A stretch of 32,000 nt of DNA from Methanothermobacter marburgensis str. Marburg (GCF_000145295.1 NC_014408.1:1350001-1382000); one strand, 5' to 3'; shown: positions 7,237-30,580, counted from the stretch's first letter. Translations and numbers: made by a program. The notes: generated by a model from the sequence alone, not told the origin.

Positions 7237-7330
7237 AGTAAAAATCCCAATTTGGTCTGATTTCAAGAAATAATTGCAGAAACGACGTGATTGTACTTGT
7301 ATTTTCAATCCCAATTTGGTCTGATTTTAC
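7237..7330 (-). CRISPR. Orphan mini-CRISPR: 2 repeats (30 nt) and 1 spacer (34 nt), no cas genes in window
   Basis: Repeat 7301-7330 is attttcaatcccaatttggtctgattttac. Repeat 7237-7266 is agtaaaaatcccaatttggtctgatttcaa, with an identical 20-nt core atcccaatttggtctgattt and degenerate ends. The spacer is 7267-7300. On the minus strand the intact repeat ends in GATTGAAAAT, like the archaeal ATTGAAA-type 5'-handle. It resembles the 30-nt repeat I recall from Methanothermobacter arrays (from memory, unverified). An AT-rich leader-like stretch at 7331-7437 lies on the side of the intact repeat. Confidence 0.65.
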
Positions 7331-7587
7331 TTTAATACAATATGTAACTATAGTCTTATATATTTATTGAACTGACATGTTAAGTTAATGACCCGCATAA
7401 AAAACTTATAAAAGATTTTTTTCAGAGTAATAAATGAAAACTCAGGTTAACCGAGACGTTCTCACACCATCTACAGAAAGATTTTCCACCCAACCCCTCT
7501 TTCATTATAAACCTTCTTGAACGGTCTGTCTCCAGGTTTAAGATTGTTCTTGAAGAACTATTCCAGACAGGCCCCATCCACAGGGAA

Positions 7588-8619
7588 ATGCGCTCCAGGA
7601 GAGATTACCATGGTTCAAGGCTCTACACTGGCTCATCACTGAATCTATCACCCTACAGGATCTACATTAAAAGCTGGCATGACCATGAAACCATACTCAA
7701 CAGGATGATATCCCAGACAGCATATTACCTTATGTGCGCAGCTGAACTTGTGGGTGGAATGGTTGATGGTGAAAGGTCTGAATTATGCCAGACTCTCTTC
7801 AGATCAGCGGCTGGAATCATGGACAGGTACCATCTCTGGGCCTTTTTCACCATCGATATTCTTGAGGAATCAAAGATCCTTGAACGACTAATATCAGAGG
7901 GAAACAGGCTTTACAATGAAATTTACAGCATCTTCCGGATGATAAGGGACACTGTTATTTACCTCAACCTCATCCACCCTCTGCAGGGGGATGGAGTGGA
8001 GATGCCCCTTCAGGAATTTTACAGTATATATGAACTCTGGGCGATCTCAAGAATATGGGATAAATTCCGCCAGATGGGATTTCATATTAAATCTGTTGAA
8101 AAGGCGCTTTCACATCTTCCATCATCGAAAATATCCATCAGGATGGAAAGGGGCAATGAAAGTGCCACGATAATATGGGAAGTGAAGCTAAATGCAATTG
8201 AACACTCAACCTACTATGGTGACCTCCTGCAGGCTCTCGGAGGAGGTGGAAGTGTTATAAAACCCGATATAACCGTTCTCTATGAATCTGAAGGTCATAA
8301 GAGGGCTCTGGTGGGGGATGTTAAGTTTTCAGTTACAGATACCGGACTTCCCCGACTTGAATCCATCTATAAAGTTCTCAGTTATGTGGAGGATCTCAGA
8401 AAATCCCCCCTGTTCAGAGGATGGGATCTTGAGGGGCTCCTGGTATACCCTGGAATGGTGAGCCCAGTTAGCGTTCCCTCCTCACTCGTTGCATACCAAT
8501 TTATACTATCGATTATACTAATGGTGAGCCCAGTTAGCGTTCCCTCCTCACAGAGTGGCAGCCATATCCATGTTTTTCCGCTTAACACATCAAACAGGGA
8601 ATTTGGGGTATTTGGTTAA
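7588..8619 (+). CDS. PD-(D/E)xK nuclease-fold protein (McrC/DUF2357-like guess), probably 5'-truncated and carrying an in-frame 66-bp insertion
   Basis: 343-aa ORF. The nuclease-like core is VIKPDITVLYES...ALVGDVKFS (D...D-x-K). The same frame stays open without any ATG/GTG/TTG back to a TGA at 7435-7437, reading ...LLERSVSRFKIVLEELFQTGPIHRE before M1. MVSPVSVPSS is duplicated 22 codons apart. Confidence 0.55.
   Translation: MRSRRDYHGSRLYTGSSLNLSPYRIYIKSWHDHETILNRMISQTAYYLMCAAELVGGMVDGERSELCQTLFRSAAGIMDRYHLWAFFTIDILEESKILERLISEGNRLYNEIYSIFRMIRDTVIYLNLIHPLQGDGVEMPLQEFYSIYELWAISRIWDKFRQMGFHIKSVEKALSHLPSSKISIRMERGNESATIIWEVKLNAIEHSTYYGDLLQALGGGGSVIKPDITVLYESEGHKRALVGDVKFSVTDTGLPRLESIYKVLSYVEDLRKSPLFRGWDLEGLLVYPGMVSPVSVPSSLVAYQFILSIILMVSPVSVPSSQSGSHIHVFPLNTSNREFGVFG
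8454..8551. repeat. Perfect 32-bp direct repeat flanking a 34-bp AT-rich insert (period 66 bp) inside a CDS
   Basis: aatggtgagcccagttagcgttccctcctcac occurs at 8454-8485 and 8520-8551. The insert 8486-8519 is tcgttgcataccaatttatactatcgattatact. The structure can equally be read as a 30-bp duplication plus a 36-bp insert. Confidence 0.95.
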
Positions 8620-9384
8620 TTACATTAAACTCTGCTCCTTCCTGTTGAAGAGGAAGGCCGCTGCAAGGACGGCTATAACTGCAAAAACCGATATCACTGC
8701 AATGTTAACCTCAAGTGGAAGCACCGAATTTCTCAGTATTGTGAACCTGAGGGCGTCTACTGCATAGGTCAGTGGGTTTATATAGACCGCGCCCTGAAGC
8801 CAGGCAGGGAGTCCGGTTATTGGGAAGAGAGCCCCACTCAGGAGGAATATTGGGAGCACTATGAAGCTCATTATGAGGTTGAACCCCTCCATGCTGTCTG
8901 TGAAGGCCGCTATCATGAGGCCCAGGCCGCCGAGACCCATGGATATTATGAGGGCTATCACCATGCTAACAGCGAAGCAGATGGGGGACATTGTAACTCC
9001 CACTATGAATGATAGGACAAGGAGGATGACCGCCTGTATCATCGAGGCAGTGCTTATCCCCAGCGCCTTCCCGATCACTATTGAGGGCCTTGATATGGGT
9101 GCAACCAGTATCTCCTTCAGGAACCCATACTGGCGGTCTATTATCACAGAGACCCCTGAGAATATGCTGGTGAAGAGTATTGTCTGACCTATTATACCCG
9201 GATAGATGAAGGCCCTGTAGCCCCCGGCCACTGCGCCGAACCTCACAGCAGCCCCCAGACCTGTGCCGAATATTATGAGCCAGAGGAGGGGGGTTACCAC
9301 AGATGTGACTATCCTTGAACGGTAACGAAAGAAACGCTTCATCTCACGCAGCCATATTGTATATATGCCCTCAAGTTCCGCCAT
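8620..9384 (-). CDS. ABC-2 type exporter permease
   Basis: Polytopic membrane protein (ORF 8620..9399). I prefer the ATG at 9384 (MAELEGIYTIWLREMKRFFR), which is preceded by AGGTGAGG. It lies 23 nt downstream of the ATPase gene. Confidence 0.85.
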   Translation of the reverse strand: MAELEGIYTIWLREMKRFFRYRSRIVTSVVTPLLWLIIFGTGLGAAVRFGAVAGGYRAFIYPGIIGQTILFTSIFSGVSVIIDRQYGFLKEILVAPISRPSIVIGKALGISTASMIQAVILLVLSFIVGVTMSPICFAVSMVIALIISMGLGGLGLMIAAFTDSMEGFNLIMSFIVLPIFLLSGALFPITGLPAWLQGAVYINPLTYAVDALRFTILRNSVLPLEVNIAVISVFAVIAVLAAAFLFNRKEQSLM

Positions 9385-9422
9385 GATATCAAACCTCACC
9401 TACTACCCCCAATTTCACCATA

Positions 9423-10361
9423 TCATGCCTCAGTTATACCCCTACCTGTGTACCTTATGAACACGTCCTCAAGGGTGGGGTGTTCCAGTTCTACTGACCT
9501 CACGTAGAATCCAGTCCTCGCTGCAAGGTTAACGATCTCGGGTACCAGGTTTTCGCCCCTCTCAACCAGCACCTTGACCTCGTCATCCACCAGGTAGGCC
9601 TTCTTAACGTAGTCCTGTTTCACCAGGAGTTCATGGAATTCATCTGCCCTGTCAACCCTGACCGTTATGGTGTCCGCCCCAAGCTCCCTCTTGAGGTTTG
9701 AGGGGCTGTCAGCCTTTATTATCTCCCCACGGCTCATTATGGCCACCTCATCGCAGAGTTTATCTGCCTCCTCCATGTAGTGGGTGGTGAGGAGCACGGT
9801 AACGTCCTCCTCCCTGTTGAGCCTCTCTATGTACCTCCAGATGCTCTCCCTTGTCTGGGGGTCGAGTCCAAGGGTTGGCTCGTCAAGGAAGAGCACCCGG
9901 GGGTGGTGTATCAGGCCGCGGCCTATCTCGAGACGCCGCTTCATACCCCCAGAGTATGTCTTCACATACTCATCGGCCTTATCACCCAGGGCGATGAGTT
10001 CAAGGACCTCATCTATCCTCCTCTTCCTTATGTCCCTGGGGACCCCGTAGAGGGCGGCGTGCATTTCAAGGTGCTCCCTTCCTGTGAGTATGTCGTCGAG
10101 GGCCCTTGACTGGAAGACTATGCCTATGGACTCCCTCACCTTCCTGGCCTCCCTTACAATGTCGTAGCCGTTTACCATACCCCTCCCGGATGTGGGGTGT
10201 AGTATGGTGCAGAGCATGGATATCAGTGTGGTTTTACCTGCACCGTTAGGCCCAAGGACACCGTAAATGGAGTTTTCAGGGACCTCAAGATCCACGGAGT
10301 TAACCGCCAGGAAATCATCATATCTCTTGCTTATACCCTCTGTTTCAATTATGTTACCCAT
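9423..10361 (-). CDS. ABC transporter ATP-binding protein (DrrA/ABC-2 family)
   Basis: 312 aa with Walker A GPNGAGKTT, signature YSGGMKRRLE and Walker B VLFLDEPTLGLD. Confidence 0.93.
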   Translation of the reverse strand: MGNIIETEGISKRYDDFLAVNSVDLEVPENSIYGVLGPNGAGKTTLISMLCTILHPTSGRGMVNGYDIVREARKVRESIGIVFQSRALDDILTGREHLEMHAALYGVPRDIRKRRIDEVLELIALGDKADEYVKTYSGGMKRRLEIGRGLIHHPRVLFLDEPTLGLDPQTRESIWRYIERLNREEDVTVLLTTHYMEEADKLCDEVAIMSRGEIIKADSPSNLKRELGADTITVRVDRADEFHELLVKQDYVKKAYLVDDEVKVLVERGENLVPEIVNLAARTGFYVRSVELEHPTLEDVFIRYTGRGITEA

Positions 10362-10500
10362 AGGAACCCCTTCAGCTGATGCTCACATCCGGTCGTCACA
10401 AGTATTTTATGCCTCCAGTGATTAATATAGTATTAAGTGAAAATCCATTAGGGGGATCACATCAGGGTTTCCCACTATTCTTCCTGTGTGGGGTGGTTGA

Positions 10501-11910
10501 TTGAGGTTCAGGTCCATTGAAAAGTCACCTACCGGTATAAAGGGTCTTGATATGGTAACAGGGGGTGGTTTTCCCCAGGGGAGGAACACACTCATCTATG
10601 GTGGCCCAGGTACCGGAAAGACATTCATTGCAGTTGAGTTTCTCCTGAATGGGGCATCCTACTACGGGGAGCACGGTGTCCTTGTGAGCTTTGATGAACC
10701 GGCAGATAACATTGTTGAGAACTTCCAGACAGATGACAGGATCCTTGAAAAACTGATTAAAGATGGTAAAATATTTATTGAAGACGTTTCAGGGGCACCT
10801 GACCCCAGTATAGGATCCTACAGTCTGGATGCCCTTAAGATAAGGATCGAGGATGCTGTTAAAACCACCGGGGCCAGCAGGGTTGTCCTTGATAAGGTGG
10901 ACAGCCTCTTTGATGGTGTATCAGACAGGGGGCCCCTCCACATGGAACTGCGCCACCTCATATCCTGGCTGAATGGGATGGGGGTTACAAGCGTATTCAC
11001 CGCCGGCGACTCGGGGGGTAAACCAACACATGGACTTGAGGACTACATCTCCGACTGTGTCATACACCTCACCCACACCTTCGATGGGGAGGTTGGAACA
11101 AGACACATGCGAATAGTCAAGTACCGCGGCTCCAGCCACGGCCTCAACAGGTACCCCTTCCTCATCAATGAGAGAGGAATCTCAATCTTCCCGATAACCT
11201 CCCTCAAACTGGATTACAGTGTCAGCCGGGAACTCGTCTCCACAGGGATACCTGACCTGGATGATATGCTGGGTGGGGGTGTATACAGGGGTTCCAGTGT
11301 CCTCATATCAGGTACGACAGGGGCCGGTAAGACCACCGTTCTTTCAAAATTTGCCTATGAGGCCTGCCGCCGCGGTGAACGCTGCCTCTACTTTGCCAAT
11401 GAGGAGCCCGCAGATCAGATAATCCGGAACATGGAATCGGTGGGGATCCAGCTCAAAGATCATACTGATGATAAACTCATGATACACTCCGATAGGCCCA
11501 CATCACTGGGACTTGAATCCCACCTGACCGAGATGCAGGACCTTGTAATGGACTTCAAACCTGATACTGTACTTGTGGACCCTGTTACTGGCCTTGCAGC
11601 TGCAGGTGGACCCTCAAATAGGGTCAGCAATGCAAAGAACCTCTTCATAAGGTTCACCGATTTTCTGAAGTCACGGGGTGTGACCTCCCTCTTCACATAC
11701 CTTATAAGGTCACCGGTCACCGCAACCCAGACTGAACTTGAGATCTCATCACTGATTGATACTTGGATTGTCCTGGAGCATGTGAGGACCAACGGTGATT
11801 ACAAGAGGCTCCTCCGCATACTAAAGAGCAGGGGAATGGACCACTCAAGCAGCGTCGCAGAGCTGAAATTCACTGAAAGGGGGATTCTCATCAAGGGGGG
11901 ATCCTGGTGA
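10501..11910 (+). CDS. kaiC: KaiC-like double RecA-domain ATPase
   Basis: 469 aa with a TTG start. There are two P-loops, GGPGTGKT (N-terminal domain) and GTTGAGKT (C-terminal domain), each preceded by GIPGLD/GIKGLD-type motifs. Confidence 0.88.
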   Translation: MRFRSIEKSPTGIKGLDMVTGGGFPQGRNTLIYGGPGTGKTFIAVEFLLNGASYYGEHGVLVSFDEPADNIVENFQTDDRILEKLIKDGKIFIEDVSGAPDPSIGSYSLDALKIRIEDAVKTTGASRVVLDKVDSLFDGVSDRGPLHMELRHLISWLNGMGVTSVFTAGDSGGKPTHGLEDYISDCVIHLTHTFDGEVGTRHMRIVKYRGSSHGLNRYPFLINERGISIFPITSLKLDYSVSRELVSTGIPDLDDMLGGGVYRGSSVLISGTTGAGKTTVLSKFAYEACRRGERCLYFANEEPADQIIRNMESVGIQLKDHTDDKLMIHSDRPTSLGLESHLTEMQDLVMDFKPDTVLVDPVTGLAAAGGPSNRVSNAKNLFIRFTDFLKSRGVTSLFTYLIRSPVTATQTELEISSLIDTWIVLEHVRTNGDYKRLLRILKSRGMDHSSSVAELKFTERGILIKGGSW

Positions 11911-11926
11911 GAGTGGGGGATGAGTC

Positions 11927-12172
11927 ATGATCCATCTTCGCATATACATCGCCGGTGATAACCTTTCAGCTGCGGCCCTTGAAAACCTCAGGAATGTTAT
12001 GGGTGATGATGCGAAGCTAGAGGTTGTTGATGTCCGTGGAGACCCCGAGATTGCAAGGGAGAATGGAGTCATTGCCATTCCGACCCTGGAGAGGATAAGC
12101 CCGGGCCCCAGGCGGAGGGTTATAGGGGACCTCAATGACCCTGATGCCCTGCGCAGATTCATAGGTATCTGA
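11927..12172 (+). CDS. kaiB: KaiB-like thioredoxin-fold protein
   Basis: 81 aa. LRIYIAGDNLSAAALENLRNV...VVDVRGDPEIARENGVIAIPTL matches the KaiB pattern. It starts 16 nt after kaiC. Confidence 0.85.
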   Translation: MIHLRIYIAGDNLSAAALENLRNVMGDDAKLEVVDVRGDPEIARENGVIAIPTLERISPGPRRRVIGDLNDPDALRRFIGI

Positions 12173-12182
12173 GGTGCATGGT

Positions 12183-14171
12183 ATGGAGAATGCAATCAGG
12201 AGGATCAATGACCTCATTGATGAGAGGAGAGAGGAGGATACCCTATCACTCATCAGGGGTATGGAAGCAGGGGACCATATCTGCATCATATACGATGATG
12301 AGGCTGAGTGGAGGAGGATCATTGTTCCCTTCATCATCGAGGGCCTCAGGAGGGATGAGAGGTGCATATACATAGCCAGCCAGAGGACATGCGAAACCAT
12401 CAGGGAGGAGCTCGGCAGGAAGATCCCTGTTTCCATGTTTGAAGCCGGAGGGAGCCTCAGGATAATGAATGAAACTGAGGCTTACACAGAGGGGGGTTTC
12501 TTTGACCCTGAAAGGATGCTTGACCTCCTTGAATCCGAAACAGAAAATGCGGTTGCCGAGGGCTTCACTGGCCTCAGGGTTACCGGTGAAATGAGCTGGG
12601 TCCTCAGGGGCCTCCCCGGGAGCGAAAGGCTGATAGAGTATGAGGCCAGACTCAACAATTTCTTCCCGGGATCTGACTGCCTTGCCATCTGCCAGTACCA
12701 CAGGCAACTCTTCAGCCCCGATGTGATCAGGGGAGTCCTGCTCACCCACCCCATAGTTGTCTGGAACTCAGGTGTGTACAGAAACCCATACTATATAAGC
12801 CCGGAGCTTATCCTCAGCGGTGAAGAATGTGAGAGGGAGGTGGATAACTGGCTCGAGAATATAAAAAGGGAGAATGAACTTTTAAGGTCCCTTGAAAACA
12901 TCAAAAAGCTCTATGATGAGTTCATAAACCACAGTCCATGGATAGTGTTCCTCAAGGATTTCAGGTCAAGGTACGTGATTGCAAACAGCAGGTTTTCAGA
13001 GCTTGTGGGAACAGAGGATATCACCGGAAAGACCGACTTTGATCTGATGGACAGAGAGGCCGCTGAGGCCTGCCTTGAGTCCGACAGGATTGCCCTGAGG
13101 GACGGTGAATCCTACACTGAGGAGGAAGTTAAGGGCAGGGTCTACGGGGTATACAAATTTGGTTTTAAGCTGCCCGATGGTAGAAGGGGTGTCGGTGGCT
13201 TTGCAGTTGATATAACACAGAGAAAGGTGTATGAGCGGGACATTGAAACCTCGAGGAACAACTTCTTGGGTATCGTTGAGAACAGCCCGGAGCCCATGGT
13301 GATAGTGGATCTGGATGGCAAACTCCTCTACTCAAACCCTGCTGGCAGAAAGTTCTTTGGCTGGCCCCCCGATTACAGGGGTGGGCACATCGGAGTACCC
13401 CTCAGGAGGGAGATACCGGAGATCAGGGTCCTTTCTGCTGACGGCCAGGTGCGGGTGGCTGAGATGATGGTGACAGACACTGTCTGGGAGGGCAGAAAAT
13501 CCCTCCTTATCAGACTCCATGATATAACCAGGCTCCGTGAATATGAGATTTCCCTGAAGAGGTCCCTCAGGGAGAAGGAGGTGATGCTCAGGGAGATACA
13601 TCACAGGGTCAAAAACAACCTCCAGATAATATCCAGCCTCCTTAACCTCCAGAGATGCTCTATCCAGGATGAGAGGGCTGCCGACGTATTCACCGATAGT
13701 GTTAACCGTGTCAAGTCCATGGCCATGATACATGAGAAACTGTACCAGTCAGAGAGCCTTGCTGACCTACCATTCTCAGAGTACATAATTGACCTCGTAT
13801 CTGAGATAAGGTCAAATTATCCTGAAAAAAGGATATCGGTTAATTACGATATGGAGGACATTCACCTGGATATAAACAGGGCCATACCGGCAGGTTTAAT
13901 AGTCAACGAGGCCGTCACCAACTCCATGAAGCATGCGTTCAAATCAGGTGAAGGTGAACTCATCATACGCCTATTTTCGAGGGAGGGCATGGTCCATGTG
14001 GAGGTTGAGGATGACGGACCCGGTCTTCCAGCGGACTTTGATACAGATACCAGCGGCGGCCTTGGCATGGATCTTATGAGGAACCTTGCATCGCAGCTCG
14101 ATGGTGAACTCAGAATCAGGGGGGATGATGGCGTGCGGGTGAGCCTTGTTTTCCCGGCACAGAAAAACTGA
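12183..14171 (+). CDS. Sensor histidine kinase: MEDS domain + PAS domains + HisKA_2/HATPase_c
   Basis: The ORF runs 12174..14171. I prefer the ATG at 12183, 5 nt after GAGGTG. The N-terminus has the MEDS-like GDHICIIYDDEAEWRRIIVPFIIEGL. There are PAS-like segments in the middle. The H-box is EIHHRVKNNLQIISSLLNLQ, and ATP-lid motifs are NEAVTNSMKHAF and DDGPGLP...GGLGM. Confidence 0.9.
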   Translation: MENAIRRINDLIDERREEDTLSLIRGMEAGDHICIIYDDEAEWRRIIVPFIIEGLRRDERCIYIASQRTCETIREELGRKIPVSMFEAGGSLRIMNETEAYTEGGFFDPERMLDLLESETENAVAEGFTGLRVTGEMSWVLRGLPGSERLIEYEARLNNFFPGSDCLAICQYHRQLFSPDVIRGVLLTHPIVVWNSGVYRNPYYISPELILSGEECEREVDNWLENIKRENELLRSLENIKKLYDEFINHSPWIVFLKDFRSRYVIANSRFSELVGTEDITGKTDFDLMDREAAEACLESDRIALRDGESYTEEEVKGRVYGVYKFGFKLPDGRRGVGGFAVDITQRKVYERDIETSRNNFLGIVENSPEPMVIVDLDGKLLYSNPAGRKFFGWPPDYRGGHIGVPLRREIPEIRVLSADGQVRVAEMMVTDTVWEGRKSLLIRLHDITRLREYEISLKRSLREKEVMLREIHHRVKNNLQIISSLLNLQRCSIQDERAADVFTDSVNRVKSMAMIHEKLYQSESLADLPFSEYIIDLVSEIRSNYPEKRISVNYDMEDIHLDINRAIPAGLIVNEAVTNSMKHAFKSGEGELIIRLFSREGMVHVEVEDDGPGLPADFDTDTSGGLGMDLMRNLASQLDGELRIRGDDGVRVSLVFPAQKN

Positions 14172-14244
14172 ATGTTAAACTATTGCATTGTCCAAAAACC
14201 CAATTAAGTGACGATTTTCCCGGCACAGAAAAACTGAATGTTAA
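14149..14244. repeat. Perfect 30-bp direct repeat flanking a 36-bp AT-rich insert (period 66 bp), duplicating the histidine kinase stop region
   Basis: ttttcccggcacagaaaaactgaatgttaa occurs at 14149-14178 and 14215-14244. The flanking bases differ on both sides. The insert 14179-14214 is actattgcattgtccaaaaacccaattaagtgacga. Copy 1 contains the last 7 codons plus the TGA at 14169-14171. Confidence 0.97.
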
Positions 14245-14783
14245 GGAGAGGTAATGTCCTGAAGATCGACGTTGATGTTCACACCAGGACCATCATCTCC
14301 TGTGAATGTGACCTCATCCCATGACCATGAGGACGTTGACGTGTACACCAAAAAAACCATTAAATCGGACCTCCCGGTGATCCTCCAGCGGCTGTCAGTG
14401 TTGTGGCCGGGATCCCTGATGTCCCTCAATACTGTTTCTTGCCGGCGGACTTCTTCTGGCGAGTGGTTTCATGCCGACCAATTAAAGAGGGGCGGCATAT
14501 GGTTGTAAGTAAGTCTGTTTTCATCTATCTTTTACCTTCTCCATTAAGAACCTTCAGTGCTGCTTAGCCGGTACCACGTCTCTTATGGTTGTCACCATGC
14601 CCTATCATGTGCGTACCTTTCATGGAGGGTTGATCCGTGGACCAGGAACCCCTGACGTCCTGGAATGAAGAGCTGGTCCCGGAAAAATCCCCTTGAAACT
14701 CCACAGGGCACTTCACCGAACTATTCCCTGCTCTGGAAAATGATAAATAAGCCGGTTTACATATTAATTAGCCGGTGAGGTGC

Positions 14784-16130
14784 ATGATATTCGAGATAAT
14801 AAGGTCGGAGGGGCTATCCCATAATTCCTATTTTCTTGCATCTGGTGGCGAGGCTGCTGTTGTGGATCCAAGAAGGGATGTGGACGTGTACCTTGAACTT
14901 GCAGAAAAAAACAGCGTGAACATCAGGTACATCTTTGAAACCCACCGCAATGAGGACTACACCATTGGCTCTGTGGAACTGGCGCGGTACGTGGATGCTG
15001 AGATACTCCACGGGGCGCATCTGGATTTCGAGTATGGTACGGCTGTGGTTGAGGGTGACACCTTCAGACTGGGGAACCTTGAACTGGAGGTCCTTGAAAC
15101 ACCCGGGCACACCTATGAGAGCATATCGGTGGCTGTGCGTGATACCACCGTCTCAGATGAATGCCTGATGGTCTTCACCGGTGACGTGCTATTCGCTGGT
15201 GAAACAGGGCGTGTTGATTTCTTTGGACCCGAAAAAATCCCTGAAACCGCAGGGTTGCTCTATGATAGCATACATGAGAAGATAATCCCCCTGGGAGACC
15301 ATGTTGTGGTCTGCCCGGCCCATGGAGCAGGTTCGGTCTGCGGGGCGGACATAAGGGACATGGATACAACAACGGTTGGGTATGAGAGGCTCACAAACCC
15401 CTACCTGCAGATGGGAAGGGACGAGTTCACTGAACACAAGATTTCCGAGAGACTCTACACACCACCATACTTCCGGAGGATGGAGGAGAACAACCTGAGG
15501 GGTGCTCCTGTGGAGAACCCCAACCTTGAAGCCCTCCCTGTCCCTGAATTCAGGGAACTGCTGGCTGAAAGCGCCCAGGTGGTTGATGTCCGGAACCCCA
15601 CAAGCTTCTCATCTGGCCACATACCCGGAAGTCTGAACATCTGGCAGGACGGATTCGCAGCCTTTGCAGGTTACTTCCTCAACTACGACGACCCTGTACT
15701 TGTGGTTGATGATGGGAGGGGTGTTGAATCTGTGAGGAGGTCCCTTATAAGGCTCGGCTATGATAACATGGCAGGTTACCTTGCAGGGGGATTCCCCTCC
15801 TGGTACATGGCTGGACTCGAGTTTAATGCCATAAGGTCCATGAGCGTCCATGAACTCAGAGAACTTGAAGGTGACATCTTCCTCCTTGATGTGCGTAAGA
15901 TCACAGACAGGGAGAGGTTCCATATTGAGGGCTCAGAGCACATCTGGGTGGGGGATCTCCCTGATAACGTTGACATGATCCCCGAGAAGGACGTGGTTAT
16001 ATACTGTGATTCAGGTTACAAGTCAACGATAGCTGCCAGCATACTTGAGAGTCATGGTTTCAGCACCACAACTGTACTTGGGGGTATCGGCGCATGGCTG
16101 AGGGCAGGTTACCCTGTGGTGGAGGTGTGA
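14784..16130 (+). CDS. Metallo-beta-lactamase-fold protein fused to two rhodanese domains (sulfur-transfer / persulfide-metabolism type)
   Basis: The ORF runs 14775..16130. I prefer the ATG at 14784, after GGTGAGGTG. MBL motifs are ETHRNEDYTIG (a variant of THxHxDHxxG), TPGHT and CPAHG. Rhodanese 1 lacks the catalytic Cys (VVDDGRG). Rhodanese 2 has it (VIYCDSGYKS). Confidence 0.85.
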   Translation: MIFEIIRSEGLSHNSYFLASGGEAAVVDPRRDVDVYLELAEKNSVNIRYIFETHRNEDYTIGSVELARYVDAEILHGAHLDFEYGTAVVEGDTFRLGNLELEVLETPGHTYESISVAVRDTTVSDECLMVFTGDVLFAGETGRVDFFGPEKIPETAGLLYDSIHEKIIPLGDHVVVCPAHGAGSVCGADIRDMDTTTVGYERLTNPYLQMGRDEFTEHKISERLYTPPYFRRMEENNLRGAPVENPNLEALPVPEFRELLAESAQVVDVRNPTSFSSGHIPGSLNIWQDGFAAFAGYFLNYDDPVLVVDDGRGVESVRRSLIRLGYDNMAGYLAGGFPSWYMAGLEFNAIRSMSVHELRELEGDIFLLDVRKITDRERFHIEGSEHIWVGDLPDNVDMIPEKDVVIYCDSGYKSTIAASILESHGFSTTTVLGGIGAWLRAGYPVVEV

Positions 16131-16133
16131 GTA

Positions 16134-16610: not shown

Positions 16611-16629
16611 AGGTAAATGAGTGTAAGTG

Positions 16630-16655
16630 GTTCCAGGTGTTTGGCCACCTGGAAC
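16630..16655. other. Perfect 10-bp stem / 6-nt loop hairpin in a convergent intergenic region
   Basis: gttccaggtg-tttggc-cacctggaac. It lies 20 nt after the PNPOx-like stop. No oligo-T tract follows, so a terminator role is uncertain. Confidence 0.4.
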
Positions 16656-16821
16656 AGGTTAGGGGGGTTAAATGTAGAAAAAGTTTAGGGTGTTGAAGGA
16701 GTTAAATGAAGGTTGGGGGGATGAACATCTACTCCTTCACCTACCCTGCTACTCATTCTTCTTCACATAGACTAAAGGTTTTTTGTGAATAATTTCACCC
16801 ATCTCATATTTTTTGTGACAT

Positions 16822-22375: not shown

Positions 22376-24082
22376 ATGAAAGGGATAAAGGTCGTTGAAA
22401 CAGCATTCAGGGATGCGCACCAGTCACTTCTTGCAACTCGTCTCCGGACAAGGGACATGATACCCATCGCAGAGGAGATGGACAGGGCTGGTTTCTTCTC
22501 ACTGGAGGCGTGGGGAGGCGCAACCTTCGATACCTGCATACGTTACCTGAACGAGGATCCATGGGAGAGGCTGCAGAGACTCAAGGAGCACATAAGAAGG
22601 ACTCCGATACAGATGCTCCTTCGCGGTCAGAACCTGGTGGGTTACAAGCACTACCCCGATGACATCGTAAGGAAGTTCATTGAGAAGTCATATGAAAACG
22701 GCGTTGATGTGTTCAGGATATTCGACGCCCTTAATGACCTCAGGAACATGGAGTACGCCATAAAGGTTGCCAGGGAACAGGGCGCCCATGTCCAGGGGGT
22801 TATCTGCTACACCATAAGTCCCTACCATACACTTGAAAGTTACGTGGACTTTGCAAGGGAACTGGAGGCCCTTGAATGTGACTCGGTTGCCATTAAGGAT
22901 ATGGCTGGTTTAATTTCACCCCACGATGCCTACGAACTTGTAAGCACCCTTAAAGAGGAAACAGACCTCATGGTAAATCTTCACTGCCACTGCACAAGCG
23001 GTATGACACCCATGAGTTACTATGCGGCCTGTGAGGCGGGGGTTGATATCCTTGACACCGCAATATCCCCCCTATCATGGGGTGCATCACAGCCTCCAAC
23101 CGAGAGCCTCGTTGCTGCCCTCAGGGACACCCCCTATGATACCGGACTCGACCTCAAGATCCTGAAGAACATCAAGAAGTACTTCGAGGAGATCAGAAAG
23201 AAGTACAGCAGCATACTGGACCCCATCGCCGAGCAGATCGACACAGACGTCCTTATCTACCAGATACCCGGGGGTATGCTATCAAACCTTGTTGCACAGC
23301 TCAAGGAACAGAACGCCCTTGACAGGTACGAGGAGGTACTTGAGGAGATGCCCCGTGTCAGGAAGGACATGGGTTACCCGCCACTTGTAACCCCGACGAG
23401 CCAGATAGTGGGTATACAGGCTGTTATGAATGTCTTAAGCGGCGAAAGGTACAGTATGGTCACCAATGAGGTGAAGGACTACTTCAGGGGACTCTATGGT
23501 AGGCCGCCCGCACCTGTAAATGAGGAGGTCGCAAGGAAGGTAATCGGCGATGAGGAGCCCATCGACTGCAGACCCGCAGACATCCTCAAGCCCCAGTACG
23601 AGGAATGCTGGAAGAGGGGTGAGGAGATGGGCATAATAGAGAAGGAGGAGGATATACTGACCCTCGCACTTTACCCTGCCATAGCACCCAAATTCCTGAG
23701 GGGAGAGGTGGAGGAGGAACCGCTAGAGCCCCCGGTGGAGGAAAGGGCACCCGCCGGTGATGTGCCAACGGTCTTCCATGTTGAGGTGGACGGTGACGAA
23801 TTCAACGTCAAGGTCGTGCCCACAGGATACATGACCATCGAGGAGGCTGAACCAGAACCCGTGGACGTTGAGGGTGCCGTCAGGTCAACTATGCAGGGGA
23901 TGGTTGTGAAGCTGAAGGTCAGTGAGGGTGACGCTGTGAATGCAGGGGATGTTGTGGCTGTTGTTGAGGCCATGAAGATGGAGAACGACATCCAGACACC
24001 CCATGGTGGCGTTGTTGAGAGGATATACACAGGTGAGGGCGAAAGGGTTGAGACAGGTGACATCCTCATGGTCATAAAATAA
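22376..24082 (+). CDS. pycB: Pyruvate carboxylase subunit B (carboxyltransferase + biotinyl carrier domain)
   Basis: 568 aa. It has a TIM-barrel carboxyltransferase N-terminus (VETAFRDAHQSL) and a C-terminal biotin attachment site VEAMKMEN. Confidence 0.93.
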   Translation: MKGIKVVETAFRDAHQSLLATRLRTRDMIPIAEEMDRAGFFSLEAWGGATFDTCIRYLNEDPWERLQRLKEHIRRTPIQMLLRGQNLVGYKHYPDDIVRKFIEKSYENGVDVFRIFDALNDLRNMEYAIKVAREQGAHVQGVICYTISPYHTLESYVDFARELEALECDSVAIKDMAGLISPHDAYELVSTLKEETDLMVNLHCHCTSGMTPMSYYAACEAGVDILDTAISPLSWGASQPPTESLVAALRDTPYDTGLDLKILKNIKKYFEEIRKKYSSILDPIAEQIDTDVLIYQIPGGMLSNLVAQLKEQNALDRYEEVLEEMPRVRKDMGYPPLVTPTSQIVGIQAVMNVLSGERYSMVTNEVKDYFRGLYGRPPAPVNEEVARKVIGDEEPIDCRPADILKPQYEECWKRGEEMGIIEKEEDILTLALYPAIAPKFLRGEVEEEPLEPPVEERAPAGDVPTVFHVEVDGDEFNVKVVPTGYMTIEEAEPEPVDVEGAVRSTMQGMVVKLKVSEGDAVNAGDVVAVVEAMKMENDIQTPHGGVVERIYTGEGERVETGDILMVIK

Positions 24083-24293
24083 AATTTTTATATTTTTACA
24101 CCATGGCCATAGCAGACACCTGCGGGTTCTGCTTCAATATGGGGCCAAATACCTACTTTTATGTCCAGGAGATTCCTCTGCATCCCTTAACTGGCATGTG
24201 GAATTGCACTCATCTATTTTCTCAGGACCCTTCTTCTATTTTTTATCCTGACCTCAGTATCAGCTGATTCAGGTAAATCCATGAAACAGCTGA

Positions 24294-24959
24294 TCAGTGA
24301 AGATCCCAGACCCGCTCAATCCATGATGACATGATGATGCAGCCAGCGGCCGTAAGTAAACCCTCAAGGAGGCCCCATGTTGCTGAATAGATCCCCATAC
24401 TCACCACTGACCTCATGATGGGGAATACACCTGCAGCCCCAAGCTGGATGCCTGTGAGGATACCTGCCAGCACATATGATGCAAAACCTGCAATGAATCC
24501 TGAAAGAACCCTCCTTCCCCCCGAACCCCCAATTGCCCTGCTGTAGATGTAGAATCCCAGGAAACACCCAGGAACCCCCATACCGATCATGTTTGCGCCA
24601 AGTGATGTTACTCCACCAAAGCCAAAGAAGATGGACTGTACAAGCATGACAGCAGACATGAGGATAAATGCCAGGAAGGGGTTTTTAAGGATTACTGAAA
24701 GCAGAGCGGCCCCGTTAAGGGTAAGCGGTACGCCGTAGGGTACAGGTATGCAGAAAGCCTGGATTAAGAAGATTAAAGGTGGTGCAGTTAACATGATCAG
24801 GAGATAACCTGTAAGGTTCACATCATGTGCTCCCTCATCCCTCTTCATGGACAGAAGACCCCTTATCACCCATGCGATGCTCAGGACGAGTACCGCAGTT
24901 GCAGTTACATTGTAGAAGACCAACTGCCAGGCAGGGATAAAACCATCAGGTATGTTCAT
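24294..24959 (-). CDS. CbiM/NikM-like ECF S-component paralogue, orphan (no cbiN/Q/O nearby)
   Basis: 221 aa, polytopic. The N-terminus is MNIPDGF, versus the canonical MHIPDG/MHIMEG. A stop lies immediately upstream in frame, so the start cannot be extended. Confidence 0.75.
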   Translation of the reverse strand: MNIPDGFIPAWQLVFYNVTATAVLVLSIAWVIRGLLSMKRDEGAHDVNLTGYLLIMLTAPPLIFLIQAFCIPVPYGVPLTLNGAALLSVILKNPFLAFILMSAVMLVQSIFFGFGGVTSLGANMIGMGVPGCFLGFYIYSRAIGGSGGRRVLSGFIAGFASYVLAGILTGIQLGAAGVFPIMRSVVSMGIYSATWGLLEGLLTAAGCIIMSSWIERVWDLH

Positions 24960-24964
24960 TCACC

Positions 24965-24980
24965 ATCACCTCAAGGTGAT
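24965..24980 (-). promoter_or_regulatory. 16-nt palindrome ATCACCT-TG-AGGTGAT containing the cbiM-like SD sequence
   Basis: The minus-strand mRNA sense reads atcaccttGAGGTGATggtgaATG. An AT-rich TATA-like tract (attatatta) lies immediately upstream at 24981-24989. Confidence 0.3.
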
Positions 24981-25131
24981 AATATAATATGAATACATAA
25001 AAAAGTATTCCTGGTTCTCTCATCTAGAGTCTGGGGTTAAGAAAAAACAGATGCCCCCCCGACCTTCCCTCAGTTAAAGAGCCTATGTCAAGAAAAAACT
25101 ATAATAAGCCTCCAGTGTGAGGTACAGCCCT

Positions 25132-25803
25132 CTATTCAAGGTATTCTGTGGGATCATCAACACCTGCAAGTTTGAAGGCCCTCCTCCTCCTCATACAGGA
25201 CTCGCAGACACCACAGTGAACCTCACCTCCACTGTAACATGAGTAGGTCAACTCAAAGGGCAGACCCACAGCAGAACCAACCTCAACGATCTCCCTCTTG
25301 GTCATACCTATGAGTGGCGCCCTCACCTCAACACCCCGCAGCGTGCCTATACCCAGAAGCCTGTTGAACGCATCAAGAAACTCTGCAGAGTTGTCGGGAA
25401 AGGTCTCGGCCTCCTCAAGGTCCCACCCCACTATAACTGCATCCGCATCCAGGGCCTCTGCAAAGGAAACGCCAATAGCTGTGAAGACTATGTTCCTCCC
25501 GGGTACCCAGACCCTCCTTGCCGTCTCAAGGCACTCCTCCCTGTCATCAAGATCTGCTGGTGAGGGTATCTCACCCCCCGCTGTGAGGGCGGAACCCCCA
25601 AGTCTTCCAAGCCAGGGGAGTTCAATTGTTGTATGCTCAATGCCAAGGTGCTTCGCAAGTTTTCTGGCGTGTTCAATCTCCATGGCGGCACTTCTCTGGC
25701 CGTAATCGAATGTTAAAGCGTGGATCTCATATTCAGATGCTAGCAGTGCTGTTGCAACTGCAGAGTCCATGCCAGCTGATAGTATGCTGATCGCACTACT
25801 CAT
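25132..25803 (-). CDS. queC: 7-cyano-7-deazaguanine synthase (QueC), PP-loop ATPase
   Basis: 223 aa. It has a PP-loop variant LSAGMDSAV and the C-terminal Zn motif CYSGGEVHCGVCESCMRRRRAF. Confidence 0.85.
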   Translation of the reverse strand: MSSAISILSAGMDSAVATALLASEYEIHALTFDYGQRSAAMEIEHARKLAKHLGIEHTTIELPWLGRLGGSALTAGGEIPSPADLDDREECLETARRVWVPGRNIVFTAIGVSFAEALDADAVIVGWDLEEAETFPDNSAEFLDAFNRLLGIGTLRGVEVRAPLIGMTKREIVEVGSAVGLPFELTYSCYSGGEVHCGVCESCMRRRRAFKLAGVDDPTEYLE

Positions 25804-25872
25804 CAGAAGCCTCCCTATGTTCTACCCGTATTCCTATTGACATTCTCATCTCAGGTTTCCCCCATCTCATAA

Positions 25873-27084
25873 TTATTCTTTATCCTTATCCTTCATGAAA
25901 TCTCTGAACTGTTTCTCGGCCATTTCCATGACATCCCTGAGGGGTACCCCTGTTTCAAGTGATATCCTCCTTGCATCCTCGTATTCTATCCTTGCATTCA
26001 CAACCCTTGATCCAAGGAGGCCCACCTTGAACCTGGCCCTTCTTCTCCCCTTTATATCAACCTCGGCCTCCATGATTCTCCTCTCAAGGACGCCCCTGTG
26101 AACCTGGGGGAATATCCTCACACCAAGGGTTCCTGTCTCAGAGAACAGGTGCTTGAGTATCATTTCATGGTCATTCTCCCTGCATATTACCCTTATTAGC
26201 TGTCCTGGACGGTTTTTCTTCATTATAACCGGTGTGAGTGTAACGTCAAGGGCACCTGCATCCATGAGGCTCTCGAAGAGGTTGCCCAGGACCTCACCGC
26301 TGAGGTGATCCACATTGGTCTCAAGTAACGTTACTGTGTCATGGTGCACAGCCTCTGAGCCCCTCACCACCCTCAGAACATTAGGGAAGTCTGGATCCAT
26401 GTCCCCTGCACCGTAACCTGTGGCCTGGATCTCCATTGGAGGGTAGAACCTCCTGTATTCCCTCACCATGTTAACAAGGAGCGCGGCGCCTGTGGGTGTT
26501 GCAAGCTCCAGCTCAACCGGGCCTCCGGTCACAGGAAACCCCCTGAGTATCTCAACAGTGGCCGGTGCAGGGAGAGGTATCTTTCCATGGGCACCGCTCA
26601 CTGTCCCTCCCCCAAGCGCCACAGGTAATGTGTAGACGGTATCCCTGTGAAGGTTGAGGTCAAAATAGGCAAATACCGTCCCCAGGACATCTGCAACTGC
26701 ATCTGCAGCTCCAACCTCATGGAAGTGGACCTCATCCAGTTTCAAACCATGCACCGTGGCCTCTGCCTGTGCCATGGTATGGAAGACTGCCCTTGCCATT
26801 GATAGCATCTCCCCATCAATTGAGGGGTTATCTATCCTCTCAAGGCGTTTTAAAAATTCCATGTAGCCTATGCTTAGGGATTCGTCTGTCCTCACATCCA
26901 CATGGGTTGCCCGGAGGCCTGACCTCTTAACCTCTGACACCTCCACGCTGGCCCCGCCAAAGTGGGATGCTGCCTCCTCCATGACCTCCGCTGTACGCTC
27001 AGGGTGGGCCCCCAGGTCTATGAGGGCCCCCACCATCATGTTACCTGATACCCCTGCAAGCTGGGGGTCTATGACCGTTACCAT
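25873..27084 (-). CDS. larC: LarC-family nickel insertion protein (DUF111)
   Basis: 403 aa. The N-terminus VIDPQLAGVSGNMMVGALIDLGA and the HFHEVGAADAVADV motif are typical of LarC. Confidence 0.85.
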   Translation of the reverse strand: MVTVIDPQLAGVSGNMMVGALIDLGAHPERTAEVMEEAASHFGGASVEVSEVKRSGLRATHVDVRTDESLSIGYMEFLKRLERIDNPSIDGEMLSMARAVFHTMAQAEATVHGLKLDEVHFHEVGAADAVADVLGTVFAYFDLNLHRDTVYTLPVALGGGTVSGAHGKIPLPAPATVEILRGFPVTGGPVELELATPTGAALLVNMVREYRRFYPPMEIQATGYGAGDMDPDFPNVLRVVRGSEAVHHDTVTLLETNVDHLSGEVLGNLFESLMDAGALDVTLTPVIMKKNRPGQLIRVICRENDHEMILKHLFSETGTLGVRIFPQVHRGVLERRIMEAEVDIKGRRRARFKVGLLGSRVVNARIEYEDARRISLETGVPLRDVMEMAEKQFRDFMKDKDKE

Positions 27085-27100
27085 TCAAGCACCGTTCGGA

Positions 27101-27433
27101 TCACTCTGGTGGTGAATTGACTATTATTCTCCTTATGGGTATCTCTATTATGGTGTACTTCTCATCACCAAGTTCCCTGCTGAACCTCGCCACTATGGGG
27201 TCAACGAGCTCCTCGTCAACCACCGAGCATACCAGGACCGCGTCCCTTGCATAGTCATGTATGAGTGAGATTGCTGATTTGGGGTCCTCCTTGATTGAGA
27301 ATCCCTTCCACTCTGTTGGGGAGACACCCTTGTATTCAACTATGTAGAAACCTGTGACGCCCTCATCTGCCAGTATGTTCATGACGCGACCAAGGTTCTC
27401 AACCTCCACGAATACCCGTAGATGCACCTTCAT
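27101..27433 (-). CDS. Small alpha/beta protein, P-II/ACT-like fold guess, uncharacterised
   Basis: The true CDS is taken as the last 110 codons of the 277-aa ORF ([36 protein letters not shown]...). GGGTGAT and a TATA-like atatctatata lie directly upstream of the ATG at 27433. There is a 16-nt gap to larC. Confidence 0.7.
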
Positions 27434-27548
27434 TAATATCACCCTATATAGATATGTGGTGTGTAGATAATAAATCTGATGAGGAATAAAATGGTGCCGG
27501 TACCGGTGTCTGGATGATCCCGCTGAGAAAAGGTGCCTATATCTGAAG

Positions 27549-28391
27549 GTGAAACCCTTGAATGAAAAGTTAAATCTTAACGGTGCAGAAATTGTAATAG
27601 AATCTGATCTTGTGAGGGTGAGGGCAGAACCAGGCCTTGTAATTGCCTCCAGAACCATGAAAAAGTCCTCTGATGTTACCCTTGAGCTTTCAGGACCCCC
27701 TGAGGTTGCATGTGCCGGTAAAGTGCTCTCGGTATTCTCTGCTGGAGATTTCCCCCATGTAATTGTGGTTTGTGGGGAGCGGTGCGGTGACCGCATACCT
27801 GAAATCCTGCAGCTTGCTGTGAGTGAAGTAACATCAGCCCTGGGGTTACTCAGAGAAATCCTGGAGCCCCGGGTAACCGTGGTCTCCATGCCCGGTGATG
27901 ATGGATTCAGTGCGCCTGACCTGAGGAAGTCCATCAGGCTTTCATCTCAGAACATGCTCCTTGAGGGGCCTGGGGTTGAGGAACTCCTGGCGGGGCATGG
28001 TGTGACAGCTGATGCCATGATCGATGCTGGTATGGAGCTAGTGGTTGGGGTTGAGGTCACGGATGAACTGAGGGAGAGGCTGGGGTCAGAGATAAAACGT
28101 GCGCTGGGGGATCTGAACGTCCGCGTGCTCCTCGCCGCGGCACTGCATATTGAGGATGACATCAGAAGAAGGAGGATACTTGGAGTGGACCTGACAGATG
28201 ATCCCGCCTACCTCTACAGTGATGAGGTGATCGGGATGGCGGTTGCGAATCAGGTGGCCGGCACCAAGGCAATATTCAACTTCAAACGCTACGATGAGGA
28301 GAAACCCGGGGTGATAGGGGAACTCGGACCCATGGTGGATGATGCGGTGGCGGGGCTCATAGCAGGCTGCATGTCAAGGCTTTTTGAGTGA
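27549..28391 (+). CDS. PgpA-family phosphatase-like protein, candidate alpha-ribazole-5'-phosphate phosphatase (CobZ-like)
   Basis: 280 aa. The C-terminal half has PgpA-type motifs SDEVIGMAV and [14 protein letters not shown]. It sits immediately upstream of cobS. The start is GTG at 27549, or TTG at 27558 after GAAGGTG. Confidence 0.6.
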
Positions 28392-28403
28392 TGGTGGTTT
28401 TTA

Positions 28404-29147
28404 ATGGATTTTCTGAGGAAATTCGCTGGTCTCATATCATTTTCAACTGTCTTTCCTGTGGGTTCAGATGCCACCGTTGAGGAGGTGGCCTCCATCACAC
28501 TCCACTGGCCACTTGTTGGTGCCCTGATAGGGGCCGTTGTGGGTTCAGGAGGTCTTCTAGCGTCACTCATACTCCCCTATCCCGTGGTTGCCTGTGTCGC
28601 CTATGCCCTTGCCATATGGTTCACCGGCTTCCACCACCTTGATGGCCTCATAGACATGGGGGATGCCCTCATGTCCCATGGGAGTTTCGAGAGGAAGATA
28701 GAGATAATGAGGGATCCCCGTATCGGTACCGGTGGACTGGGACTTCTCATCATAGTCTCCTCACTGACAGTGGCATCAATATACTCCATTCCATCAGATA
28801 TCATATTCCAGGGCCTTTTAATTTCAGAGGTCTCTGCAAAGATATGCCTGACAGGCTGTGCACTGGTCTCAAGGCCCCTGGACAGTGGTACGGGAAGGCA
28901 CTTCATAGCTGCAGCCAGGAGCCCCCTGATCGCCCCTGTGTGGGTTATCTGGTCAGCCGCAGCCTACCTTTTACTGGGGATCCCTGGAGCTGCTGGTGTT
29001 GCCGTGGCTGCTGCCTCTGGAGTATTCATGGGATTCACTGCAAGGAGAAACTTCTACTGGAGCACAGGTGATGTTCTTGGTGCCTCAAATGAGATTGGGA
29101 GGATGATGGGTCTCCTGGGAATTGTTGCAGCCATCCAGTTAACATGA
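28404..29147 (+). CDS. cobS: Adenosylcobinamide-GDP ribazoletransferase (cobalamin synthase)
   Basis: 247 aa, polytopic, with the motif [14 protein letters not shown]. Confidence 0.88.
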
Positions 29148-29176
29148 TTATTATACTGATTTATGGAGGTCATATA

Positions 29177-29734
29177 ATGGATATCAGGGTTTTAAGGTTA
29201 GGTCACAGGAGGTCAAGGGATGCAAGGATCACAACACACGTGTGCCTCACCGCAAGGGCCTTTGGGGCATCTGAGGTTATACTGAGCGGTGAGGAGGACC
29301 CGAAACTCATGGAGGGCGTCGATGATGTTGTTAAGAGGTGGGGCGGACCCTTCAGGGTGGGTTACAGGAGAAACTGGCAGGGCGTCATTGAGTCCTGGAA
29401 GCAGATGGGTGGGGAGGTTGTGCACCTCACAATGTACGGGCTTCCTGCAAGGGACGTTATACCCGATTTAAGGGAAAGTCCAGCAGGTAAACTCGTGGTG
29501 GTTGGAGGTGCCAGGGTCCCCGGGAAGGTCTACAGGCTTGCAGATTACAATGTTGGGGTGACGAATCAGCCCCACTCGGAGGTTTCATCCCTCGCGGTCT
29601 TCCTCCACATGCTCCTTGATGGGGGCGAATTCGACCTCAAATTTGAGAACCCCATGATAGAGGTTGTGCCCCAGGCCCACGGAAAGAAGCTGATTGAGAG
29701 GGGAGGTGATATCAATGCTCAGGGTGATAGATAA
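29177..29734 (+). CDS. tRNA (cytidine56-2'-O)-methyltransferase aTrm56 (SPOUT)
   Basis: The ORF runs 29144..29734. I prefer the ATG at 29177 (MDIRVLRLGHRRSRDARITTHVCLTARAFGA), 7 nt after GGAGGT. Confidence 0.85.
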   Translation: MDIRVLRLGHRRSRDARITTHVCLTARAFGASEVILSGEEDPKLMEGVDDVVKRWGGPFRVGYRRNWQGVIESWKQMGGEVVHLTMYGLPARDVIPDLRESPAGKLVVVGGARVPGKVYRLADYNVGVTNQPHSEVSSLAVFLHMLLDGGEFDLKFENPMIEVVPQAHGKKLIERGGDINAQGDR

Positions 29735-30344
29735 CCTTGTTGTAAGGGAGATTCTAACAGGTATAAGGAGGAGGGGGATTGACCCCGCCGGTTTCAGGAA
29801 GGGGCTCTCTGATATAGGCCGTTACATGGCCTATGAATTCGCAGATACCCTCAGGTGGCGTAATGTTGATGTTGAAACGCCACTGGGGATTGCCTCAGGT
29901 GTTGAGATCACAGATAGAAGCAGAATCGTTGTGCTGAGCATCCTCAGGGCATCATTACCATTCACAGAGGGCGTTATGAGGGTCTTCCCTGAGGCAGAAC
30001 AGGGTATTGTAGGGGCCTGCAGGTCCGATGATCCCCCCTTCAATGTTTCAGTCGACTATCTGAGGGTTCCTGAACTGGATGGTAAGGTAATGGTAATAGC
30101 AGACCCCATGCTTGCAACCGGTAACACGATTATGGGGATACTTGAGGCTCTTGAGGCACACGGCACCCCTGAGAGGACCGTCCTCTTCAATGTTATATCC
30201 TCAAGGCCCGGCATTGAGAGGATCCTTGAAATGGATATGGAGGTCTACACCTGCAGTGTTGAGGATGAACTCAACGACAGGGGCTACATAGTCCCCGGGC
30301 TGGGGGATGCCGGGGACCTTGCATTCGGAAGACCATCAGAATAG
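29715..30344 (+). CDS. upp: Uracil phosphoribosyltransferase
   Basis: The ORF runs 29694..30344. I prefer the ATG at 29715, after GGAGGTGAT. It has the PRPP-binding motif VMVIADPMLATGNT and a C-terminal GYIVPGLGDAGD. Confidence 0.9.
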   Translation: MLRVIDNLVVREILTGIRRRGIDPAGFRKGLSDIGRYMAYEFADTLRWRNVDVETPLGIASGVEITDRSRIVVLSILRASLPFTEGVMRVFPEAEQGIVGACRSDDPPFNVSVDYLRVPELDGKVMVIADPMLATGNTIMGILEALEAHGTPERTVLFNVISSRPGIERILEMDMEVYTCSVEDELNDRGYIVPGLGDAGDLAFGRPSE

Positions 30345-30420
30345 ATAAAAATAGATGGCCATGGTGGTGCCAGTCACCTCCCACCACCTGAACAGCTAAC
30401 AATGAACCGATCAGGGACCA

Positions 30421-30580
30421 GCCACAATACCAGTACTCCAATGACAATACTGGGTGTGTGGGGACCTGCAAGGATCAGCTGCAAGGCCACAATACCAGTA
30501 CTCCAATGACAATACTGGGTGTGTGGGGACCTGCAAGGATCAGCTGCAAGGCCACAATACCAGTACTCCAATGACAATAC
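30421..30580. repeat. R-S-R-S-R array: 30-bp unit x3 separated by two identical 35-bp units (65-bp period)
   Basis: R is gccacaataccagtactccaatgacaatac at 30421-30450, 30486-30515 and 30551-30580. S is tgggtgtgtggggacctgcaaggatcagctgcaag at 30451-30485 and 30516-30550. All copies are perfect. The array sits in the convergent intergenic region between upp and fumarase beta. Confidence 0.97.

Follow-up and report, generated by a model that had tools for sequence, protein, structure and literature searches.

Integration of new spacers at places other than a CRISPR array has been described in two systems that come closest to the sites reported here. In Escherichia coli type I-E, off-target spacer integration produced neo-CRISPR units, and circumstantial natural cases were reported in two other species (Nivala, Shipman and Church 2018). 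In Pyrococcus furiosus, Cas1-Cas2 integrated in vitro at sites outside CRISPR in pairs, one event on each strand with 30-31 bp between them (Grainy et al. 2019, PMC6698737); G or C was favoured at the borders and a leader was not needed for this off-target integration (PMC6698737). Here we analysed a stretch of 32,000 nucleotides (nt) from Methanothermobacter marburgensis str. Marburg, called the window below. The window is identical to about 1,350,007-1,382,006 of CP069376.1, the resequenced Marburg chromosome (accession named in PMC10579436). It contains a CRISPR remnant and three other sites (A, B and C), at which ordinary chromosomal DNA is duplicated on both sides of a short insert. We regard it as fairly probable that the three sites arose by off-target full-site integration, by Cas1-Cas2, of 34-36 bp DNA away from any array, and that at site C one unit was subsequently doubled. 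The scars add a natural case to a phenomenon that is already known, and an earlier, sequence-only reading of the window went too far in calling such events undescribed, given the natural candidates already reported in two other species.

The scars share with neo-CRISPR units a spacer-sized insert outside an array, a target duplication of one repeat length and a possible role as the seed of an array. They differ in that they are natural, belong to Methanobacteriales, have 30-bp duplications, have empty alleles in sister strains, lie in a genome reported to be without cas1-cas2 and gave no protospacer match. The previous natural cases are said to be from Yersinia pestis and Sulfolobus islandicus, and the E. 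coli units were reportedly obtained with overexpressed Cas1-Cas2, a shorter repeat and a spacer of 33 bp. The P. furiosus repeat is of 30 bp, and belongs to a related family that ends in ATTGAAAG. Likeness to the P. furiosus off-target products lies in the 30-bp repeat and the dispensable leader, and possibly in the G/C borders; here, G stands at a border in six of the seven targets compared, a small sample (background 0.41). The difference is that P. furiosus integration was observed in a plasmid assay with purified proteins, whereas our scars are fixed genomic outcomes with weak target similarity, known from sequence alone. With regard to canonical adaptation, the repeat-length duplication, the spacer-length insert and the period of 65-66, at the mode for Methanothermobacter-type arrays, are all alike. 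On the other hand, the duplicated DNA here is ordinary chromosomal sequence, no leader is seen, there is no array, and the insert of site C occurs twice in identical form.

Structure of the three sites, empty alleles at A and B, and foreign inserts

The components of the sites are given below (L numbers are our labels for fetched loci).

8454..8485, + strand: site A, target copy 1; 32 nt (30 if 2 nt match by chance); single copy in the empty site of L081
8486..8519, + strand: site A, insert; 34 nt, 29% GC; lacking in L081 and in all protein homologues; source not found
8520..8551, + strand: site A, target copy 2; perfect repeat, by comparison with L081
14149..14178, + strand: site B, target copy 1; 30 nt, covering the final 7 codons plus stop codon of histidine kinase gene 12183-14171; single in L102
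14179..14214, + strand: site B, insert; 36 nt, 36% GC; lacking in L102, L097, L098 and L101, present in L223-L225; source not found
14215..14244, + strand: site B, target copy 2; perfect repeat, by comparison with L102
30421..30450, + strand: site C, repeat copy 1; 30 nt, first base G, last base C
30451..30485, + strand: site C, insert copy 1; 35 nt, 60% GC; source not found
30486..30515, + strand: site C, repeat copy 2; perfect repeat
30516..30550, + strand: site C, insert copy 2; same sequence as insert copy 1, probably from a later duplication of one unit
30551..30580, + strand: site C, repeat copy 3; perfect repeat; the entire site C is identical in CP042937.1

Repeat finders run on the window gave a perfect 32-mer pair at site A and a perfect 30-mer pair at site B, both at period 66, and at site C (30421-30580) a 65-nt unit in 2.46 perfect copies, which corresponds to R30-S35-R30-S35-R30 (R, repeat; S, insert). 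The sequence-only reading had listed four structures of similar geometry, the CRISPR remnant among them, and all four were recovered. It had also noted that two of the three inserts are AT-rich; inserts A and B lie below and insert C above the 47% GC of the window. Its remark on TTGCA near insert ends did not hold up: in 2,061 natural spacers, neither TTGCA nor TTGC is over-represented at one end or the other, and both were rejected as a spacer-end signature; the shared TTGCA is most reasonably put down to chance.

That the structures arose by chance or reflect misassembly in one genome record is hardly credible. The only support for that idea would be that the window was taken from a single assembly. 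The chance expectation of perfect 30-nt repeats not more than 100 nt apart in 32 kb is negligible (~1e-12). Moreover, site B is found exactly in three independent short-read assemblies (L223-L225), and another complete genome, CP042937.1, agrees with the window throughout site C; it is the only other genome found with an identical fumarase protein. In five Logan contigs with an identical Upp protein, the sequence stops at the last base of the first 30-mer of site C, a point at which an assembly graph would branch. Chance and artefact were rejected on the strength of these independent assemblies for B, of CP042937.1 for C and of the contig breaks at the repeat of C. In one of the assemblies with site B, L224 (SRR35947640), only 94.8% of positions are identical to the window over 5.4 kb, while the kinase protein and the site B scar are identical to those of Marburg; this suggests that recombination may have carried the scar between strains.

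Relatives with empty sites give the direction of change at A and B. In L081, a Logan contig whose flanks are 98.7-99.2% identical to the window, the 32-mer is single, the site A insert is missing and the sequence continues directly. None of the protein homologues at site A (456-512 aa) has the 22 residues that derive from the extra 66 nt. In L102, a contig of a metagenome-assembled genome with 98.9% identity upstream through the kinase gene, a single 30-mer without the site B insert is followed by the same downstream sequence, and the more distant L097, L098 and L101 are also without this insert. Since close and distant relatives alike lack the inserts of A and B, the filled state is derived, and A and B are proven to be insertions and not deletions in the relatives. 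Both scars are younger than about 1% sequence divergence. Tandem duplication by slippage was rejected for A and B because the whole unit is not single in the ancestral allele, the insert being missing from the empty alleles. The proposed comparison of empty and filled strains was thus successful for A with L081 and for B with L102, and gave no informative allele for C.

If the 2.46 copies at site C were formed by unequal recombination, the ancestor had already been repeat-insert-repeat. The site is also flanked by an older, imperfect 18-nt direct repeat (16/18; 30401-30418 and 30584-30601). Collapsing site C to one 30-mer puts these 18-nt copies 53 nt apart, which points to an earlier duplication or insertion at the locus.

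The inserts are foreign to their surroundings. They have no similarity to their own duplicated targets on either strand, and a comparison with the window and ~0.3 Mb of related loci gave them no match of more than 14 nt. Copying of the inserts from their own target or from nearby sequence was rejected accordingly. Inserts traceable to the flanks had been named beforehand as the sign of replication slippage or templated repair; they are not so traceable, and the lack of any flank match removes an origin of that kind.

Agreement with CRISPR units and recurrence in related DNA

To compare the scars with real arrays, we used 119 loci with arrays of the remnant's repeat family, obtained by a metagenome scan with the repeat core. 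The repeat of this family is 30 nt long in arrays. Behind the Methanothermobacter-type repeat GTTAAAATCAGACCAAAATGGGATTGAAAT, which gave 817 repeat-spacer units, periods of 65 (n = 143), 66 (n = 287), 67 (n = 192) and 68 (n = 71) were counted, and the natural spacers are mostly 35-38 nt long, most commonly 36. At the three scars, the duplications are 30 nt (the 32 nt of A being 30 plus 2 ambiguous bases) and the periods are 66, 66 and 65. The inserts of 34, 36 and 35 nt have the spacer length of the local CRISPR family, and their GC content is within the range of natural spacers (mean 0.44, sd 0.12). We rejected the idea that A, B and C are themselves genuine arrays, because their repeats are ordinary chromosomal DNA and the 'spacers' of C are identical. 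The family repeat occurs in the window only at 7238-7331, in two degenerate copies:

7238..7267, - strand: degenerate CRISPR repeat copy 1; core AATCAGACCAAATTGGGATT at 7243-7262; 25/30 match to array variant GTTGAAATCAGACCAAATTGGGATTGAAAG
7268..7301, - strand: spacer of the CRISPR remnant; 34 nt, period 64; no match elsewhere
7302..7331, - strand: degenerate CRISPR repeat copy 2; core at 7307-7326; 27/30 match to array variant GTTAAAATCAGACCAAATTGGGATTGAAAG

Further events of the same form were found when every fetched locus was scanned for direct repeats. The background consisted of at least 80 loci (1.25 Mb) of unrelated genomes, namely inositol-1-phosphate synthase contigs with no Methanothermobacter among the matches listed. 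A 30+35 structure with one mismatch is present in a M. thermautotrophicus-like genome (L093:6177). At L097:4101, a repeat with only 25 perfect bases and a period of 65 starts right after a stop codon; the same site is single, and hence empty, in the window and in L102, and exists in a decayed version in L098. A perfect 30+36 structure (L114:2371) has its second copy overlapping the stop codon of cas1, with an array ~700 nt away, on a contig of 34% GC, and a 25+42 structure (L155:4814) lies ~250 nt downstream of another cas1. Among isolated two-copy repeats of 24-40 nt in Methanothermobacter, five of the six pairs have a period of 65-66. In the 1.25 Mb of unrelated genomes, no isolated pair was found even with one mismatch allowed, and such repeats were confined to coding repeats with many copies or to microsatellites. 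The contrast between five events in 0.33 Mb and zero in the 1.25-Mb background has a P of ~4e-4. The predicted excess at this spacing is therefore borne out as a cluster at period 65-66 in the limited Methanothermobacter DNA scanned.

Two further structures resemble the scars less closely. One lies just downstream of site B:

14299..14365, + strand: possible older decayed scar, low confidence; 67-nt segment lacking in L097 and L098

This segment is present in the window and L102, and splits an open frame of 117 aa, which L097 and L098 have in unbroken form. At the segment, an imperfect 19-nt direct repeat (16/19) is seen at 14268-14286 and 14332-14350, with a period of 64. It may, with low confidence, be an older decayed scar like A-C. 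The other is from Methanobrevibacter (L006, 570-710), in which a 23-nt perfect repeat (~33 nt with 4 mismatches) at period 69 lies in AT-rich intergenic DNA and might represent a similar scar from a different genus.

Proposed mechanism and rival explanations

The events that we favour would proceed as follows. Cas1-Cas2 would attach a captured fragment by its two 3' ends, one to each strand of the target, at points separated by 30 bp, this distance being the ruler that it normally uses on the 30-bp repeat. Gap filling would copy the 30 bp between the cuts and leave target-insert-target. At site C, unequal recombination between the new repeats may then have doubled one unit, yielding a three-repeat proto-array. 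The scars that survived would be those at places of low harm, that is, in a pseudogene (A), across a stop codon (B) and in a convergent gap (C). The enzyme was probably encoded by a CRISPR-cas locus that has since been lost in the lineage, and the remnant at 7238-7331 would mark such a locus.

Repeated integration of spacers outside arrays, as put forward by the sequence-only reading, is partly supported, with geometry, the polarity at A and B, and recurrence in its favour. We infer Cas1-Cas2 as the agent, and on this part several results weigh on the other side. The inserts gave no match to phages and plasmids when concatenated, and singly they gave only phage matches with expectation values (E) of 1 or more, in unrelated phages. 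Scans of IMG/VR with 20-mers returned a single match of exactly 20 nt with unrelated flanks, which is at chance level, and comparison with 2,233 natural spacers yielded chance matches only. Thus, the expected match of inserts to viruses, plasmids or array spacers did not appear at a significant level in any of these collections, and none of the inserts is shown to be a spacer. The targets exceed random 30-mers in likeness to the CRISPR repeat only weakly: seven targets, a small sample, sum to 74 identities against 61.6 +/- 5.9 expected (P = 0.025). In the same small sample, both borders are G or C in four of the seven against 0.22 expected, and these target features lean weakly towards Cas1-Cas2. 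No leader-like flank was seen at any target. In addition, the scars all have a period of 65-66, whereas natural units span 63-70, and three events in 32 kb imply a surprisingly high rate. An empty site C was not found, since the M. thermautotrophicus-like loci and the closer L099-L101 have a different, shorter and non-homologous intergenic region. Finally, Marburg was described as having one array with 36 repeats, and of the 18 cas genes known from M. thermautotrophicus, 17 were stated to be missing from it (Kaster et al. 2011, PMC3087415); these 18 include those for Cas1 (MTH1084) and Cas2 (MTH1083) (PMC3087415). This reported absence of cas1 and cas2 touches a point that the sequence-only reading had itself raised, a genome with no adaptation module.

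Errors of replication or repair without any Cas protein, in which slippage or template switching makes the duplication and filler is copied or synthesised at the junction, are an unlikely source of the scars, though events of this class do occur in related DNA and in the window. L094 and L095 (4279-4360) differ from L088, L090 and L091 by an insertion of 53 nt, in which a 36-nt duplication is joined to 17 nt of filler with 9 nt copied from nearby; this is a different event, of the template-switch type. L102 has two plain tandem duplications, one of a native 65-nt unit in two copies with one mismatch (9492-9640; single in the window) and another of 49 nt in two copies at the contig end (11881-11979). 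The 65-nt period of the former coincides with that of the scars, and this coincidence is unexplained. The window itself has an imperfect 26-nt direct repeat at period 50 (31108-31183), by which the fumarase beta gene has its start region twice, and the older imperfect 18-nt repeat around site C is of a similar bearing. Slippage duplications such as these are like the scars in being direct repeats in tolerated non-coding positions. They are different in that the whole unit was single in the ancestor, whereas at A and B 34-36 nt are missing from the empty allele. Moreover, the inserts at A, B, C, L093, L097 and L114 are unlike their targets or nearby sequence. Slippage would leave unexplained why a 30-nt duplication, a 34-36 nt insert and a sum of 65-66 recur at five or six unrelated sites, with the geometry of the CRISPR unit of the clade.

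We consider it a little less likely still that the scars were made by some other integrase with a stagger of ~30 bp, whether viral, plasmid-borne or the product of an unrecognised host gene, or that they are footprints of tiny mobile elements. Such an enzyme would account for the fact that Marburg is reported to be without cas1/cas2 and yet carries scars that are perfect and younger than ~1% divergence. Casposon target duplications are of 14-15 bp, and we know of no transposase or casposase that gives a 30-bp target duplication. Mobile elements are opposed by the inserts themselves, which are single-copy, mutually unrelated and far too short; transposable elements, including miniature inverted-repeat transposable elements, were rejected for these reasons together with the insert length of 34-36 nt and the duplication of 30 nt. 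Another integrase would fit both the repeat and the spacer length of the local family only by coincidence, and one event (L114) lies beside cas1. Because Marburg is reported without cas1-cas2 and the scars are young, an unrecognised enzyme, or one from a virus or plasmid, might be the inserter. We give a similarly small chance to a new small-fragment integration system in Methanobacteriaceae, which would insert ~35-bp fragments with a 30-bp stagger by a ruler that matches the CRISPR repeat length or is ancestral to it.

If the scars are products of Cas1-Cas2, they would be unusually clean natural evidence of off-array hits, comprising several independent events with sister-strain alleles in an archaeon. 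Site C, already at three repeats, would represent the proposed first step in the birth of an array. The mutational cost of CRISPR adaptation could then be measured from genome comparison alone, and the sites would be defined natural targets for biochemical study of the 30-bp ruler. Such scars would also reveal that Cas1-Cas2 was once active in lineages whose cas genes are now lost.

The CRISPR remnant, a probable loss of cas genes and the gene context

The CRISPR remnant is separated from site A by 1.1 kb and is found beside the host gene of that site:

7432..8619 (open frame 7588-8619), + strand: host gene of site A, truncated and frameshifted; homologues of 456-512 aa; no Pfam family

Site A is near the 3' end of this open frame, whose 343-aa product is functionally unassigned. 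Compared with its homologues, the gene is without its first ~147 codons (~440 nt) and has a 1-nt deletion near 7443; the missing ~440 nt are replaced by AT-rich DNA that holds the CRISPR remnant (window 7028-7590). The intact gene is of 491 aa in L081, and its family occurs in Methanothermobacter and Methanobacterium, with no Pfam domain. As judged from these comparisons, the copy in the window is a pseudogene.

A related locus gives a hint as to what stood here. In L174, which is syntenic with window 8622-15808 at ~70-75% identity, a single perfect CRISPR repeat stands on the corresponding side of the ABC transporter genes (8911-13298); after it come cas6, an unassigned gene of 561 aa, cas7 and cas5. 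Given cas genes at the position of the remnant and the truncated neighbouring gene, the window appears to hold the stump of a deleted CRISPR-cas locus, and the remnant suggests a lost locus of type I-B. The loss of the first ~440 nt of the site A host gene is lineage-specific, as L081 keeps the gene intact. Together with scars younger than ~1% divergence, this makes it possible that integration preceded the loss of cas genes. Cas genes are present elsewhere in the genus, and Hassa et al. (2019) reported two arrays and one cas cluster of unstated content. A search with type I-B Cas1 had no Marburg or M. thermautotrophicus protein among its best 120 matches and was uninformative. On its other side, the remnant adjoins a type I restriction-modification gene set (2123-6309; HsdM at 4294-6309, with likely specificity subunit genes upstream), so that the region looks like a defence island.

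The positions of the other two scars agree, as does that of A, with the earlier description of all three as tolerated. Site B starts 23 nt before the end of the MEDS-PAS histidine kinase gene, and the kinase protein is unchanged because the first copy holds the stop codon. Site C is placed in the gap between the convergent upp and fumarase beta genes.

Scans of the window with Rfam and for tRNA gave no matches, including no Rfam CRISPR family. Another gap between two convergent genes, 16627-16746, contains a hairpin followed by ~90 nt of non-coding sequence that is nearly invariant in all aligned Methanothermobacter loci; Rfam gave no match for it, and it may be a small RNA or act in regulation. 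In three M. thermautotrophicus-like loci (L089, L092 and L096, ~2726-3334), the histidine kinase gene and a beta-lactamase-rhodanese gene are replaced by one gene for a 195-202-aa product. This product has weak MEDS and rhodanese matches and looks like the result of a deletion that fused the two genes.

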